Made by a program: the position numbers and the translations under genes. DNA of 56,713 nt from NCBI GenBank assembly GCA_964500695.1, contig CAZCNT010000002.1:1-56713 (forward strand), in the 5' to 3' direction. This DNA is from an uncultured Gammaproteobacteria bacterium (GTDB lineage Bacteria > Patescibacteriota > Microgenomatia > UBA8517). Numbering within the stretch: the first letter of the stretch is position 1; each line of letters starts with the position of its first letter. Positions 3,011 through 52,495 of the stretch are shown in pieces. Below the pieces are notes generated by a model that ran no database searches, was not told where the DNA came from, and saw only the letters and a list, made by a program, of their open reading frames with translations.

Positions 3011-3624
3011 TACTGAAAAAGTCTGGCACGGCCTAATTTATAGTCCGGGTTTTTGTTTTTGCGCTCTCCGATTACTTTTGCCGGAACTCCCCCAACAATA
3101 GTAAAACTGGGAACATCCTTTGTAACAACTGCCCCAGCTGCCAGTACGGCGCCCTTTCCGATTTTAACACCGGGTAGAATAATAACCCTTGGTCCTATAA
3201 AAACATAATCGCCGATCTCAACTGGTTCGACAATTGCTGAAAAATTATTTTTTGAAAGATCGTGTTCGGAATTAAAAATCATTACACTCGAGGCTATATC
3301 CACATGGTTTCCTATTGAAAGTTTTGCCCGTCCATCCAGAAACGCATGGTCTCCAATAATTGTATCGTCACCGATTTTAATATTCTTTGGATCAAAAAAG
3401 TTCGCCCACATATGAATTACCGAATCTTTGCCAATTTTAATCCCAAAAAATTTGTATTCAAGCTTGCGGATTGAATGCGATGGCAAGTGCCCCACCCATC
3501 TTAAAAGCATAAGTTCAAAATCCAGCCAATAGTTATAAAGCCTATTGGAAATCTTCTCCATCGCTTTGATTGGCGTTAATTTTTTTCCTTCTTTGTCCTT
3601 AAACATTGTTTTATCTTTAGCCAC
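3010..3624 (-). CDS. Left-handed beta-helix (hexapeptide repeat) acetyltransferase, WcaF/sugar O-acetyltransferase-like
   Basis: Hexapeptide runs IGDDTIIGDHAFL..IGNHVDIASSV..IGDYVFIGPRVIILPGVKIGKGAVLAAGAVV..VGGVPAKVI. The start is either GTG at 3624 (inside the heptamer array) or ATG at 3606. Confidence 0.85.
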   Translation of the reverse strand: MAKDKTMFKDKEGKKLTPIKAMEKISNRLYNYWLDFELMLLRWVGHLPSHSIRKLEYKFFGIKIGKDSVIHMWANFFDPKNIKIGDDTIIGDHAFLDGRAKLSIGNHVDIASSVMIFNSEHDLSKNNFSAIVEPVEIGDYVFIGPRVIILPGVKIGKGAVLAAGAVVTKDVPSFTIVGGVPAKVIGERKNKNPDYKLGRARLFQ

Positions 3625-3656
3625 TATTCACCATTCACTAGACACTAGTCACTATT
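3622..3656. repeat. Heptanucleotide array, 5 units (cactatt caccatt cactaga cactagt cactatt)
   Basis: Read directly from the sequence. It spans the stop of the GT4 gene (3638-3640) and the GTG of the acetyltransferase (3622-3624). Same unit family as the arrays at 50894-50934. Confidence 0.8.
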
Positions 3657-48935: not shown

Positions 48936-49643
48936 TTAATACTCAACCCTGACATCATGAAGCCAGATTTTAGGAGGACGGGAAAGCATGAAAACAACGA
49001 CCTCGGCTAAATTTTCAGGATCAATAAACTTCTCTTGATCAAAATGCTCACCGGTTTTGTTAAACATTTCAGTATTTGTTCCCCCTTGGTAAAAAGCAGC
49101 TGCACGCACTGAAGTCCCCTTTAGATCCTCTTTCAGTACATCGGTAAATCCCCTAACTCCCCATTTTGCAGCCGTATAAACACTTTGCCCGGGTTGAGCT
49201 GTTATTCCCGATTTAGAAGAATCATTAATTATTACAGCTTCTTTTTGACGTTTAAGAATCGGGAGAGCAAAGTGGGCCATATAAATCATCCCTTTCAAAT
49301 CCGTATCAACAATATTGTCAATTTCTTCAATCGAAACGTCTTCGAGCAAATTTAGTTTCTGCCAAACTCCGGCGATATTAAGAAGAATCTGAACTTCTTT
49401 AAAATCAACCTCAACCTGCCTAACTGTACTCTCAACCTGTTTACTGTTAGAAATATCGCAGGAATACACTTCAGCTTTAAGAGAGCCAAGTTTTTCGACC
49501 TCTGTCTTCACGGCATTTAGCTTTTCTTCACTTCTGGCAACAAGCGCTAAAGAAACACCCTCCTTTGCCAATTTGATGGCAATTTGTTTTCCAAGTCCAT
49601 CACTTGCTCCCGTAACAATTGCGACTTTTCCCTTAAGGTTCAT
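48936..49643 (-). CDS. Classical short-chain dehydrogenase/reductase
   Basis: VAIVTGASDGLGKQIA (TGxxxGxG) and YTAAKWG (YxxxK). Confidence 0.9.
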   Translation of the reverse strand: MNLKGKVAIVTGASDGLGKQIAIKLAKEGVSLALVARSEEKLNAVKTEVEKLGSLKAEVYSCDISNSKQVESTVRQVEVDFKEVQILLNIAGVWQKLNLLEDVSIEEIDNIVDTDLKGMIYMAHFALPILKRQKEAVIINDSSKSGITAQPGQSVYTAAKWGVRGFTDVLKEDLKGTSVRAAAFYQGGTNTEMFNKTGEHFDQEKFIDPENLAEVVVFMLSRPPKIWLHDVRVEY

Positions 49644-50524
49644 TATTTTTTATTATAATTCGTTGTTAAATATTTAAAATACGCAATCGGAAAATGCATG
49701 GCACTAAAAAAACTCCACAAGAATCCGGAAACACCATCAAGAAAACCGAGATGTCTGAAATATAACTTCAAAAAAGTGAATAGTGGGTAGTAAACGGTGA
49801 ATAGTAGAAAACTCCACGGATTTTTACCAATATGGTCTTGGGCAAGTTCCTGCGCCTTCAGGTCTGTATAACGATTAAGGCGTGTCAGATAACGTTTTAG
49901 GGTCGGTGAATCATAATGCATTAAATCTTCTCCCAACCACCCAACCTTTCCATTAACTATAATTTGTTCATGAACGGATTTTTGAGGAAAATGTGCTTTT
50001 CCTTTTTTCACCAAGCGGATTTCCCCATCCGGATATACACCCGCGTGAATTAAAGGCTTTCCTAAAAAAATATTTCTCCTGGGAAGAAAATAACCAACAA
50101 CTTCACCCGTAGGTTTACCGATTTTACCATCGCGCCGTTCAATTAAAGACTGGTGACGAAGAAAAAGGGGATTGTGGATAGTGGTTAGTGGCTGGTGATT
50201 GATAACTCGGACAATTTCTTTTGCCAATTTTGGGGACACTTCTTCATCTGCGTCAAGTTGTAATATCCAGTCCCCCGTTGCTCTATCCAACGCTTTTTGT
50301 TTAGTTATGTGGAAAATATCATGGTGAGGTTCCAAAAAAACTTTTGCACTATATTTTTCGGCAATTTCGCGTGTTTTATCCGTCGAGTATTCGTCGACCA
50401 ATATTATTTCACCGGCAAGATTTTTAACCGACTCCAAACATCTGCCAATATTGCCCTCTTCGTTTCTTGTTGCCAACACGACACTAAGTAATTTGTGATT
50501 AGTGACTTGTGGTTGGTGAATCAT
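49643..50524 (-). CDS. GT2 family glycosyltransferase whose first 11 codons and one internal segment are built from heptamer arrays
   Basis: LSVVLATRNEEGNI..ILVDEYSTD..QLDADE. The N-terminus MIHQPQVTNHK is encoded by array 50495-50522. The internal INHQPLTTIHN segment is encoded by array 50174-50201. Confidence 0.85.
   Translation of the reverse strand: MIHQPQVTNHKLLSVVLATRNEEGNIGRCLESVKNLAGEIILVDEYSTDKTREIAEKYSAKVFLEPHHDIFHITKQKALDRATGDWILQLDADEEVSPKLAKEIVRVINHQPLTTIHNPLFLRHQSLIERRDGKIGKPTGEVVGYFLPRRNIFLGKPLIHAGVYPDGEIRLVKKGKAHFPQKSVHEQIIVNGKVGWLGEDLMHYDSPTLKRYLTRLNRYTDLKAQELAQDHIGKNPWSFLLFTVYYPLFTFLKLYFRHLGFLDGVSGFLWSFFSAMHFPIAYFKYLTTNYNKK
50174..50201. repeat. Heptanucleotide array, 4 units (gtggata gtggtta gtggctg gtgattg), inside the GT2 coding sequence
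   Basis: Read directly from the sequence. Same polarity as array 50495-50522. Confidence 0.6.
50495..50522. repeat. Heptanucleotide array, 4 units (gtgatta gtgactt gtggttg gtgaatc); left bracket of the four-helix-bundle gene
   Basis: Read directly from the sequence. gtgattagtga (50495-50505) is the exact reverse complement of tcactaatcac (50900-50910). Confidence 0.75.
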
Positions 50525-50892
50525 TTTTTCTTTCTCAAACTATTAATAAGAGCGTTTATCGACATTGCTAATATCTCATATCTTTGCCTAAGACGGGAAT
50601 AATTATCTTCATTAATATATTTCAGGTCTTTGGACACTAATAAGTGATAAATTGTTTCACCAGTAGAACCGCGCGCATTAATTAAAAATTGAATCAGCTC
50701 TTTAGTAGAATATCTGTAAAACCCTTCAATAATATTGGCAGGTATTGACAGAGAAGACCTTCTTAATTGAGAAACAAGTCCATACAATTCATCTTTTGGA
50801 AAACTTCTAGTAATAACATATATTTCCATGGCTAGTCTGTGCGATTCTTGCCAGATCTTTAGATCTTCAAATTTCGTAATCTTGTTTTTCAT
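50521..50892 (-). CDS. Four-helix-bundle protein, 23S rRNA intervening-sequence protein / Avd family (TIGR02436-like)
   Basis: FEDLKIWQESHRLAMEIY..FPKDELYGLVSQLRRSSLSIPANIIEG..STKELIQFLINARGSTGETIYHLLVSKDLKYI matches the family signature. 123 aa. Confidence 0.9.
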   Translation of the reverse strand: MKNKITKFEDLKIWQESHRLAMEIYVITRSFPKDELYGLVSQLRRSSLSIPANIIEGFYRYSTKELIQFLINARGSTGETIYHLLVSKDLKYINEDNYSRLRQRYEILAMSINALINSLRKKK

Positions 50893-50893
50893 T

Positions 50894-50934
50894 CACTATT
50901 CACTAATCACGAATCACCAATCACGTTCACTGAT
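50894..50934. repeat. Heptanucleotide array, about 6 units (cactatt cactaat cacgaat caccaat cacgtt cactgat); right bracket, inverted relative to 50495-50522
   Basis: Read directly from the sequence. It begins 1 nt beyond the ATG (50892-50890) and contains the stop codon (50927-50929) of the upstream GT-C gene. Confidence 0.8.
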
Positions 50935-52495
50935 TTCCACTCACCACATAGAACGCATCACTCCCATCAGGGTACTTAATCAATTCATTGACGTCAAACT
51001 GATTAACGAACCTCAAACCTCCATAATAACTCGGTGTAACAATATACAATATTTTATAATTCGGATAGCTGTTTATTATATTCCAGCCCCCGAATTGATA
51101 TTTGTCAAAAGACGATACGGTATTATAACTCTTTGATTCACTTTCATCGTATTTCACCGTTTTAAGAAGCTCCGGAAGTGGGGTTTTTAGATAGTAAAGG
51201 AAAAATATGTATGGCTGCTGTCTAATTTTGTCCATGTAAACTTTTACATAATCGGGGTTCCTCTTTACATAATCAGCGATCTGCTTCATGCCATATTGCC
51301 ACTCTATGGCGTCTTTCTTTGAATACTCCGTAAAGTAGTAGTTAACATAATGACTAGCTTCTTTGCTTAAAATGGTCAGCAATATAACAAGAACGGCTAT
51401 CTTTAACCAACTTTTTCTAAACACCGAAATAATAGCTTCTGCTCCGGTAGCCGAAAAGATCAGTACAGGGGCTATCATAAAAATACCTCTTGTGGCACTG
51501 GGCTCTAGAGCCGAGACCGCACCGGGAATCGGAGTTAAAGCTAACCAGCTCAAAAGCACCAACAATCCTTCCCACTTCCTGCGCAGTAAAAGGGCAATGA
51601 TTCCGACAGCAATAAGAACCAAATCAATTTTATAAAACTCCCCTATTGTCTTTACTGATGCCCTTGGCTTTAAATCGCCATTTTCAAACAGATATGAGAA
51701 GGTAAAATAGCCCTTATAATTGTGTATTACGGTCCCCAATTCCCCTCCATACGGCTTAGTTACTTCTTCTGAAAATTTGTTTTGATCAATTCTGGCAAAA
51801 CCCAAAATTCTAGGGTCCTTTATCACCAATCCGGTAAAAAGCATCACAATCGCGATTGAACATAACAGTATTTTTTTATTTGCAACCAACTGCCTGAAAT
51901 GAATCAGGCAAAGGAGAAGGACTAACGGAGGCACAACCACTTTGGCTGAATGATATGAAAAGAAACTCAATCCAAAAAATACAAACGACAAGGGAAAGAA
52001 CCATAGTCTTTTACCTAAACTTACATAAAAACAGGCAAATCCCGCTATCAAGAAAAATAGAGCAAAATTTGCCTCCCACAACCCCCTTGAGTAATGTATT
52101 GCATATGGAGATACGGCAATAAATAATCCCGAAAATAATGCCGCCAGTTCATTTTTAAAAAGTTGCCTGACAAATATGTAAATTGCAAGAATACTTAATA
52201 CACCGATCGCGGCACTACCGGCACGAGTTGAAAAATCAGATAACCCAAAGGTTTTTACAACAATTGCCGTTAAATAAATATGAACAGGGTGTTTATCATC
52301 CCCAAAATTCTTAAAAACTGTTGGAAATTTGTTTCCATACTCATCCGCTCCCCAATTAGCAATCGTATAAGCATTATAACCCGCGGCAACTTCATCCCAG
52401 TTTAGAGAAGGCGGAATTTGGTCTAATTTGTAAAAACGCAAAATAGCACCTAATACCAAAATCATTGCCAATATTATTAAATAAATCCTTTTCAT
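50927..52495 (-). CDS. GT-C fold glycosyltransferase (GT39/ArnT-PMT-like), tandem paralog 1 of 3
   Basis: RFYKLDQIPPSLNWDEVAAGYNAYTIANWGADEYGNKFP first-loop motif. Polytopic with a C-terminal soluble domain. Confidence 0.8.
   Translation of the reverse strand: MKRIYLIILAMILVLGAILRFYKLDQIPPSLNWDEVAAGYNAYTIANWGADEYGNKFPTVFKNFGDDKHPVHIYLTAIVVKTFGLSDFSTRAGSAAIGVLSILAIYIFVRQLFKNELAALFSGLFIAVSPYAIHYSRGLWEANFALFFLIAGFACFYVSLGKRLWFFPLSFVFFGLSFFSYHSAKVVVPPLVLLLCLIHFRQLVANKKILLCSIAIVMLFTGLVIKDPRILGFARIDQNKFSEEVTKPYGGELGTVIHNYKGYFTFSYLFENGDLKPRASVKTIGEFYKIDLVLIAVGIIALLLRRKWEGLLVLLSWLALTPIPGAVSALEPSATRGIFMIAPVLIFSATGAEAIISVFRKSWLKIAVLVILLTILSKEASHYVNYYFTEYSKKDAIEWQYGMKQIADYVKRNPDYVKVYMDKIRQQPYIFFLYYLKTPLPELLKTVKYDESESKSYNTVSSFDKYQFGGWNIINSYPNYKILYIVTPSYYGGLRFVNQFDVNELIKYPDGSDAFYVVSGNQ

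Follow-up and report, generated by a model that had tools for sequence, protein, structure and literature searches.

A four-helix-bundle gene enclosed by heptamer arrays of opposite polarity was found in a 56,713-nucleotide stretch of contig CAZCNT010000002.1 (assembly GCA_964500695.1), which is referred to here in its full length as the window. The gene and its two flanking arrays (the arms) form a cassette that is inserted at the stop/start junction between the genes of a GT-C and a GT2 glycosyltransferase (GT) in a surface-glycan operon, and related cassettes have arrived or have been exchanged repeatedly at this junction in related genomes. Gene and arms together probably constitute a selfish gene cassette. 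With moderate confidence, we interpret it as a promoter-less, operon-embedded mobile cassette of the intervening sequence (IVS) type, a build described in ribosomal RNA (rRNA), with arms that are able to close a helix and to relay translation from one host gene to the next.

Occupied and empty GT-C/GT2 junctions

In the following, WIN denotes the window locus and labels of the form L0xx or L1xx denote loci of relatives. An initial annotation had proposed that a small mobile cassette landed at this gene junction, and empty junctions that lack both gene and arrays do exist. L091/L097 have the same gene order as the window, with GT2 80% and GT-C 73% identical, and carry no cassette and no array; their junction reads ...aaccaaTAAtATGaga TTG TCC. 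The same gene order is found in L093, again with no cassette and no array, where the junction is caaTAAaATGaaa. The empty site thus has the form TAAnATG (CAA TAA t ATG), and the existence of syntenic relatives that are free of both components indicates that the gene and the arms arrived together. Most GT2 homologs are without the first ~11 residues of the window GT2, and the GT2 N-terminus at the empty-site relatives is M(K/R)LSVVLATRNEE.

Among 89 loci with this GT2, 18 are occupied by the cassette, and 68 with enough upstream sequence are empty. Every occupied locus has arrays, while the empty junctions have none except for two units in L141. At this locus (~2440-2500), the GT2 leader retains two CAC units (ATGAcaaatataaATCACAGTTCACCAcga) without a cassette, which is probably a deletion scar. 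In a neighbor-joining (NJ) tree of GT2, the occupied loci fall in at least nine separate branches, each beside empty loci (WIN+L096, L011, L095, L149, L098/101, L121, L130, L168, and L122); L012 is occupied too, but is absent from the tree. The divergence of the cassette protein does not follow that of GT2, as judged from NJ trees and pairwise identities only. The closest pair, WIN and L096, has GT2 proteins that are 90% identical and cassette proteins that are 60% identical, the corresponding values for L098 and L121 are 74% and 87%, and the overall Spearman correlation is 0.30.

A second cassette type was found at the same GT-C/GT2 junction in L122 (1700-2040) and in L127-L129. It has GAGGGTT-type arms (GGGTTGAGAGTTAGGAGTTGAGGGTTAA / CACTCAACCCTCAACAC) and a decaying protein that is truncated to 82 aa, and in L122 the start of GT2 again lies inside the 3′ arm (MNTQPSTRNRKTVKLSVV). 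The scattered occupancy on the GT2 tree, the discordant divergence, and the second cassette type all bear out the mobile-cassette proposal, and the junction offers a natural experiment on mobility, as many copies of the same site can be compared that are occupied, empty, scarred, or re-occupied. All located relatives that are at least 60% identical to the cassette protein lie directly 5′ of this GT2 family, and they do so even at loci whose upstream gene encodes an oxidase of the DAO type and not GT-C. It follows that the junction, or else the GT2 5′ end, acts as a favored landing site. An in-frame insertion of 36 aa with palindromic DNA (ggatgtcatcctcc...ggaggatgtcat) is present in the cassette protein of L098-L100 (~2100-2210) and looks like a small hairpin element inside the cassette gene.

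Structure of the cassette and its host operon

The cassette protein was matched by PF05635 (E=1.1e-36, 125.6 bits, cut-off 33.8) and TIGR02436 (E=4.2e-35, 120.3 bits, cut-off 24), in agreement with its earlier assignment as a TIGR02436-type four-helix bundle. The RxxxSxxxNxxEG motif, which is given as the PF05635 family motif (PMC3936711), is present as QLRRSSLSIPANIIEGF, and residues N53, E56, and G57 are invariant across 36 relatives. The closest solved structure is XCC0516 (PDB 2GSC, E=3e-19), which has five chains; the solved relative has been described as a toroidal homopentamer (PMC4990558).

The features of the locus and the other heptamer arrays of the window are listed in Table 1. The opposite-polarity arrays that had been noticed around the gene consist of five GTGAnnn units upstream and their reverse complement downstream, and the exact 11-bp inverted repeat is located at 50495-50505 and 50900-50910 as first described. 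On the gene strand, the units of the 5′ arm are GTGATTG (50924-18), GTGATTC (50917-11), GTGATTA (50910-04), GTGAATA (50903-897), and GTGA-ATG (50896-90), the last of which is fused to the cassette ATG (50892-50890). The end of GT-C reads ...aat cag TGA (50929-50927) ac, directly ahead of the first canonical GTGAnnn unit. At the other end, the cassette stop TGA (50523-21) overlaps the GT2 start ATG (50524-22) as ATGA, and the 3′ arm continues as tTCAC CAACCAC AAGTCAC TAATCAC AAATTAC (50520-50488), then tta gtg, and is translated as GT2 codons 1-11 or so. Four signals for the surrounding genes had been attributed to the arrays. The ATG and the stop of the gene, and the GT2 ATG with codons 1-11 (MIHQPQVTNHK), are indeed array-borne, whereas the GT-C stop was placed too neatly, as its unit is a degenerate one of 6 nt (aGTGAAC), shifted by one base relative to the register of the five canonical units.

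Table 1. Positions of the cassette, its host genes, and the other heptamer arrays in the window.
Feature	Position	Strand	Sequence or basis
Cassette gene, 123-aa four-helix-bundle protein of the '23S rRNA IVS protein' family	50521-50892	minus	PF05635/TIGR02436, PDB 2GSC match
5′ arm: one degenerate unit (GTGAAC) and five GTGAnnn heptamers	50890-50930	minus	sequence, pattern count
3′ arm: ATGA, then five nnnTCAC heptamers (5′ arm in reverse complement)	50488-50524	minus	
Upstream host gene, GT-C/PMT_2 glycosyltransferase; stop codon inside the outermost 5′-arm unit	50927-52495	minus	
Downstream host gene, GT2 glycosyltransferase with array-encoded leader	49643-50524	minus	leader MIHQPQVTNHK
In-frame CAC-type heptamer array inside GT2	50174-50197	minus	sense CACCAGCCACTAACCACTATCCAC, peptide HQPLTTIH
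Solo five-unit GTG-type array at a GT4/hexapeptide acetyltransferase junction, no four-helix-bundle gene	3621-3654	minus	

The best ungapped pairing of the two arms spans 24 nt with 83% complementarity. The pattern GTGAN3GTGAN3GTGA (at most one mismatch) was matched 9 times in the window versus 0.15 times in 100 dinucleotide-preserving shuffles of the window (shuffle maximum of 2), so that the arrays stand above chance as had been supposed; together with their recurrence across the family, this led us to reject a chance origin. A known RNA family was also rejected, as an Rfam scan of 50300-51100 gave no match reaching the gathering score. No promoter-like or terminator-like sites were found on the gene strand within the arms. 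The cassette lies between two protein-coding genes and not inside a 23S or 16S rRNA helix. Every gene in its neighborhood is on the minus strand and belongs to a large surface-glycan cluster that includes Wzy, several PMT_2/GT-C proteins, GT1/GT2/GT4 glycosyltransferases, NeuB, sugar dehydrogenases, methyltransferases, and a Wzt ABC transporter. The window, 56.7 kb in all, holds one cassette and one solo array, for a total of four arrays, three of which are at one gene.

Arms across the protein family

The family was scanned with a 14-sequence alignment as the query and one genome per species; 275 relatives were returned and 80 loci were retained, from groups of the candidate phyla radiation (CPR), Omnitrophota, Elusimicrobiota, Bacteroidota, Chloroflexota, Planctomycetota, cyanobacteria, archaea of the anaerobic methanotrophic (ANME) group ANME-1, and others. 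Nearly every locus has short tandem repeats upstream of the gene and their reverse complement downstream, while the repeat unit varies from locus to locus (GGATTAA, TAGGGAG, GGGGTAA, CAGAATA, TTTAGAAC, and others). Tandem Repeats Finder (TRF) detected repeats in 128 of 156 flanks of 78 family members, compared with 24 of 154 control windows. That other members of the family might be flanked in this way had been suggested at the outset; at least one flank carried a tandem repeat in 76 of 78 relatives and both flanks did so in 52, with complementary arms. The period was 7 or 14 nt in 97 of the 128 TRF-positive flanks, 8 or 16 nt in 17, 9 or 18 nt in 12, and 6 nt in 2, and sequence identity at lag 7 was 0.42 upstream and 0.40 downstream versus 0.27 in the controls. 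The inverted-repeat score averaged 16.3 for the two flanks of the same gene and 8.0 for flanks taken from different loci, and the corresponding duplex energies were -42.1 and -26.8 kcal/mol (p=9e-18). The median arm length was 29 nt, and the commonest number of units per arm was 4 (77 diverse loci).

The arms are also oriented with respect to transcription. The upstream neighbor is co-oriented with the gene at 65 of 70 loci and the downstream neighbor at 55 of 70, and the median gaps to these neighbors (48 nt upstream and 44 nt downstream) barely exceed the length of an arm. The purine-rich arm is the upstream one in 62 of 63 loci, with a composition of 38% A, 31% G, 22% T, and 9% C. Stop triplets per 100 nt number 10.3 in the 5′ arm and 5.0 in the 3′ arm against a background of 4.0, and all three frames are closed in 43% of the 5′ arms compared with 12% of composition-matched shuffles. 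Shine-Dalgarno (SD)-like 4-mers were counted in 34/58 versus 1/58 for 5′ arms family-wide, an enrichment that may be a mere reflection of purine richness.

PF05635 comprises 21,247 clusters at 50% identity (E up to 1e-3). In some representatives that far exceed 125 aa (for example P0377, 382 aa; P0388, 389 aa; P0403, 420 aa; P0495, 602 aa) the four-helix bundle is N-terminal, and these proteins may be read-through fusions across the stop-poor 3′ arm or gene-calling artefacts. Two peptide patterns of low sensitivity found no relatives in viral contigs, so that carriage by phages is unsupported. Full-text literature searches returned no description of inverted heptamer arms as a general trait of the family or in mRNA operons, and the only description of heptamer arms in the literature searched was that of the Coxiella IVS (PMC4990558).

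Conservation of the protein, the units, and the coupling

Thirteen distinct cassettes with 127 units (61 upstream and 66 downstream) were compared within the clade of the window. The cassette protein is maintained by selection: the ratio of nonsynonymous to synonymous divergence (dN/dS) was 0.04-0.18, which is strong purifying selection, with dS saturated. Despite this saturation, the GTG core was kept in 60-61 of 61 upstream units and 63-66 of 66 downstream units; position 4 of the unit was A in ~80%, and positions 5-7 were variable. With lenient matching, five units were counted upstream in 8 and downstream in 11 of the 13 cassettes. The suggestion that the arms had been co-opted for translational coupling is also supported, as the ATGA overlap with GT2 was kept in 12 of 13 cassettes and the GT2 frame was open through the 3′ arm in all 13. 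Eleven strain-level copies had an identical architecture, and these 11 assemblies agree in the unit numbers of both arms and of the GT2 loop array. Genomes of this type recur in samples from aquifers. Many genes of the window overlap by 1 or 4 nt, and translational coupling may therefore be the rule in this genome. The idea that the GGTGA units serve as SD sites was rejected for the window, where almost no SD-like motifs were found upstream of its 47 long open reading frames (ORFs) and these regions are A/T-rich.

Folding of the cassette RNA and proposed mechanism

Both the minimum free energy (MFE) and the centroid folds of the 481-nt sense RNA close the cassette ORF by an arm helix, and the whole-element MFE fold of the window cassette has 43 bp between the two flanks. 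Across the family, whole-element folds of a gene with its own flanks had at least 15 bp between the two sides in 64 of 78 cases.

If the cassette is of the IVS type, it would be transcribed within the host operon and would depend on host transcription. The 5′ arm, rich in purines, and the 3′ arm, rich in pyrimidines (each of ~35 nt with five heptamers, and in inverted orientation), would pair on the transcript to form a helix of ~30-40 bp that closes off the ORF. By analogy with the Coxiella rRNA IVS, such a helix may be a substrate for RNase III, and we infer from this likeness that the cassette RNA might be cut by the enzyme. At the same time, the asymmetry of the arms would let ribosomes cross the insertion in a translation relay. 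The stop-rich 5′ arm would terminate GT-C, with one stop presented in every frame because the heptamer period is not divisible by three. The cassette ATG abuts the last 5′-arm unit, and termination of GT-C could open the helix for translation of the cassette gene. Termination of the cassette gene at the TGA that overlaps the new GT2 ATG (ATGA) would then restart GT2, and the stop-poor 3′ arm would be read through as an 11-codon GT2 leader. Such a relay would preserve the coupling that is present at the empty site (TAAnATG or ATGA). If the arms do act as a translation-coupling, helix-forming frame, they would represent a compact natural device for insertion into operons without polar effects. 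That the cassette protein binds the arms or the cassette RNA is a guess.

Several observations weigh against this interpretation. Pairing of at least 15 bp was also obtained in 44 of 78 combinations of flanks from different loci, and the stability of the whole RNA fold is unremarkable (z = -0.9). The arms carry no RNA-specific signature: would-be G:U mismatches in the sense RNA numbered 65 versus 72 would-be A:C mismatches (p=0.6), and the sense duplex was only modestly more stable than the antisense duplex (50 versus 28 loci, p=0.016). The variable positions 5-7 were not pairwise compensatory in the 13 cassettes (order shuffle p=0.37), and conservation applies to the GTG(A) motif with its 7-nt spacing rather than to the helix. 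A cut by RNase III in the stem would sever the GT2 start and its first codons, so that efficient cleavage conflicts with coupling through ATGA. The genome makes little use of SD sites, which leaves a ribosome-binding role of GGTGA unsupported. In addition, a target-site duplication could not be defined at the cassette junction, and families of transposases, integrases, and reverse transcriptases were not found among the window ORFs scanned. The absence of a G:U bias, the lack of compensation, and the severing of GT2 by a cut are what hold our confidence in an IVS-type cassette at a moderate level and leave a tangible, although clearly smaller, chance for an explanation based on binding sites.

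Alternative explanations

According to that explanation, which we regard as tentative, each arm is chiefly an array of binding sites for a protein, with a factor recognizing GTG(A) at 7-nt spacing on DNA or RNA. The factor could be the four-helix-bundle protein, which is a homopentamer ring in solved relatives, or another protein, and the arms would function in autoregulation or as terminal inverted repeats for mobility at the DNA level; such a role may coexist with the helix. Retention of the GTG core in essentially all 127 units at saturated dS, the uncompensated positions 5-7, and the missing G:U bias are what would be expected of binding sites, and the occurrence of like arrays alone (the solo array and the in-frame arrays inside GT2) points the same way. 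The prevalence of five units in the arms of the clade (8/13 upstream, 11/13 downstream) can be set beside the five chains of 2GSC and the toroidal homopentamer described in PMC4990558. However, the mode across 77 diverse loci is 4 units and not 5, and the equation of five units with a pentamer is therefore kept only as a rival idea. Unit sequences that differ widely between clades would require a co-evolving specificity, and the strict purine-rich-upstream polarity (62/63) is unexpected for symmetric terminal repeats of DNA. It also counts against binding sites that Avd, the accessory protein of diversity-generating retroelements (DGRs), binds nucleic acid without sequence specificity.

A stable two-gene module, in which the four-helix-bundle gene is a partner of GT2 that is vertically inherited and has been lost many times, appears improbable. 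It would explain why, in all examined relatives of at least 60% identity, the next gene downstream belongs to the same GT2 family and overlaps by ATGA while the upstream gene varies, and it fits the purifying selection on the protein and the identical architecture of the 11 strain-level copies. However, occupied loci are scattered over the GT2 tree, the empty locus with GT2 80% and GT-C 73% identical is nearer to the window than most occupied loci, the divergence of cassette and GT2 is discordant, and each loss would need a clean restoration of TAAnATG. A different cassette type at the same junction and the presence of the framed gene in other, unrelated settings, rRNA and cas operons among them, speak further against such a module. 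Phase variation, in which the gain or loss of 7-nt units would move the GT2 body in or out of frame with the ATGA start and thereby switch GT2 on and off, is very improbable. Phase variability is classically associated with glycosyltransferase genes, the heptamer length is no multiple of three, the solo array has 5 units in the window versus 6 in L186 (96% protein identity), and heptamer number differs among Coxiella strains (PMC4990558). On the other hand, the constancy of unit number in the arms and the GT2 loop array of the 11 strain-level assemblies is contrary to such switching, imperfect unit copies are poor substrates for slippage, and switching would not account for the inverted arrays that frame a conserved gene throughout all phyla. 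We consider it scarcely credible that the gene is a DGR remnant or a stand-alone accessory, that is, an Avd without a reverse transcriptase to which the arrays are unrelated. The weak match to the Avd model NF033474 (E=8e-4) and the PF22296 (bAvd) assignments recorded for many relatives are compatible with it, but the score of 19.7 bits is far from the cut-off of 80, no reverse transcriptase was found in the 27 largest window ORFs or in the flanks of the relatives, no template/variable repeat pair is present, and the arrays are tied to the gene across the family. The earlier statement that no reverse transcriptase is present here is upheld for those 27 ORFs.

A broader conjecture, which we think unlikely, is that PF05635 genes and heptamer arrays form a self-propagating system in which the ring protein recognizes its own 7-nt units and promotes their copying or insertion. 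The cargo would be array-framed cassettes and also arrays alone, delivered into conserved transcribed sites, and the route might be RNA-templated with a reverse transcriptase supplied in trans. If true, such a system would explain the rRNA IVSs, the orphan operon genes including those in cas operons, and the solo and in-frame arrays, and possibly the short tandem repeats of cyanobacteria as well.

Comparison with known systems

The stem of the rRNA IVS and its cleavage by RNase III are the closest experimental precedent for the cassette, a link that the initial annotation had not made. In the 23S rRNA IVS of Coxiella burnetii, 3-4 tandem GACAGAT heptamers precede an S23p (PF05635) ORF, the inverted repeats at the two termini make up a 28-bp stem, RNase III cuts this stem at the start of the first repeat as mapped by RACE, and the number of repeats varies between strains; the authors argue that the S23p protein is decaying (PMC4990558). 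The window cassette is similar in its PF05635 protein, in the tandem heptamers directly 5′ of the ORF, in the terminal inverted repeats that close the ORF in a stem-loop (~28 bp in Coxiella), in having no promoter of its own, in a sporadic distribution that suggests horizontal transfer, and in the variable repeat number. In contrast to rRNA IVSs, it is situated in an mRNA operon between two protein genes, and its arms also encode the stop, the start, and the N-terminal leader of host genes. It also differs from the Coxiella IVS in that its protein is under strong purifying selection and in that cleavage by RNase III would be costly for GT2. The cassette is outside rRNA and is therefore not counted as a member of the rRNA IVS class despite the same build.

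The nature of ORF-bearing rRNA IVSs, which are known from Leptospira as well as Coxiella, the role of their ORF, and their spread have been in question since the early 1990s and have been studied almost only in rRNA. PF05635 genes have also been reported from insertions within the 16S and 23S rRNA of CPR bacteria (PMC11270868). From our data, rRNA seems to be one of the places inhabited by a far larger class, in which a unit of ORF and inverted arms is wedged into ordinary operons of CPR bacteria, Omnitrophota, Elusimicrobiota, Bacteroidota, Chloroflexota, Planctomycetota, cyanobacteria, and ANME archaea. PF05635 genes inside cas operons have been interpreted as functional associates (PMC3936711, PMC10910872); insertion offers a simple alternative to functional association for such 'guilt by association' matches of the family beside cas genes and other systems. 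A practical warning is that gene callers will append array-encoded leaders and tails to host proteins.

The cassette protein resembles the Avd protein of DGRs in its four-helix-bundle fold and in a distant sequence similarity, and Avd is said, in work of Alayyoubi et al. from 2013, to be a pentamer that binds nucleic acid. Unlike Avd, it scores far below the model cut-off, and neither a reverse transcriptase nor a template or variable repeat accompanies it. The likeness to four other systems is partial. In REP/REPIN elements (REP, repetitive extragenic palindromic) with their REP-associated tyrosine transposase (RAYT), inverted copies of a short repeat lie on both sides of a gene, and the repeat is also present solo elsewhere in the genome; the window cassette differs in that its protein does not belong to the Y1 transposases, its repeats are heptamers in tandem instead of single hairpins, and dispersed copies are few (the 56.7 kb hold 4 arrays, with 3 at one gene). 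Integron cassettes and miniature inverted-repeat transposable elements (MITEs) share a small promoter-less ORF, imperfect inverted repeats, and co-directional insertion in a transcribed string of genes, whereas the window cassette has no integrase or attI, has tandem arrays on both sides, and has no definable target-site duplication.

Short tandem heptamer repeats (STRR) are reportedly, in work of Mazel et al. from 1990, a feature of heterocystous cyanobacteria, and the cassette arms resemble them as tandem heptamers in intergenic positions. The link to cyanobacterial heptamers that had been suggested earlier stands in part. Two of three cyanobacterial plasmid copies have heptamer runs: L187 (Nostoc punctiforme pNPUN02, 1090-1600) has (GGAGTCA)n upstream and an inverted partner downstream, and L188 (Nostoc PCC 7120 alpha plasmid, 1550-1620) has (CTCTGCC)n downstream only, beside a transposase gene, while the Calothrix copy (L189) has no heptamer run. 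The STRR consensus units CCCCAGT, TTGGTCA, and CAACAGT were not seen, no genome-wide comparison of STRR with PF05635 having been made.

Other arrays in the window

The array inside GT2 and the solo array had escaped the initial annotation. The former occupies a length-variable loop and is of the same repeat type as the cassette arms. GT2 loop arrays are found in occupied and in empty loci and in either orientation (HQSPVTNH, SQSLTINHQPLEIN, and GQWLVTSD in the opposite orientation). A second array-like stretch near +720 nt of GT2 (FTVHRPLFTF) shows no length change and may be coincidental.

The solo array encodes the last four codons of GT4 and its TAG stop. The number of its units is 6 in L186 (96% identical protein), 4 in L184 (81%), and 0 in L185 (80%), and no four-helix-bundle gene was found at the junction in any of these three loci. 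The A-rich spacer of the array, AGATAAAACAA, recurs unchanged as the leader of the L095 cassette, and the solo array, which resembles a 5′ arm together with a leader, may therefore be the 5′ part of a lost cassette. A further tandem repeat at 2433-2522, unrelated to the heptamers, consists of 5.3 copies of the 17-nt unit ATATTATATATGTGCGT with 94% identity and lies between or over two gene ends.

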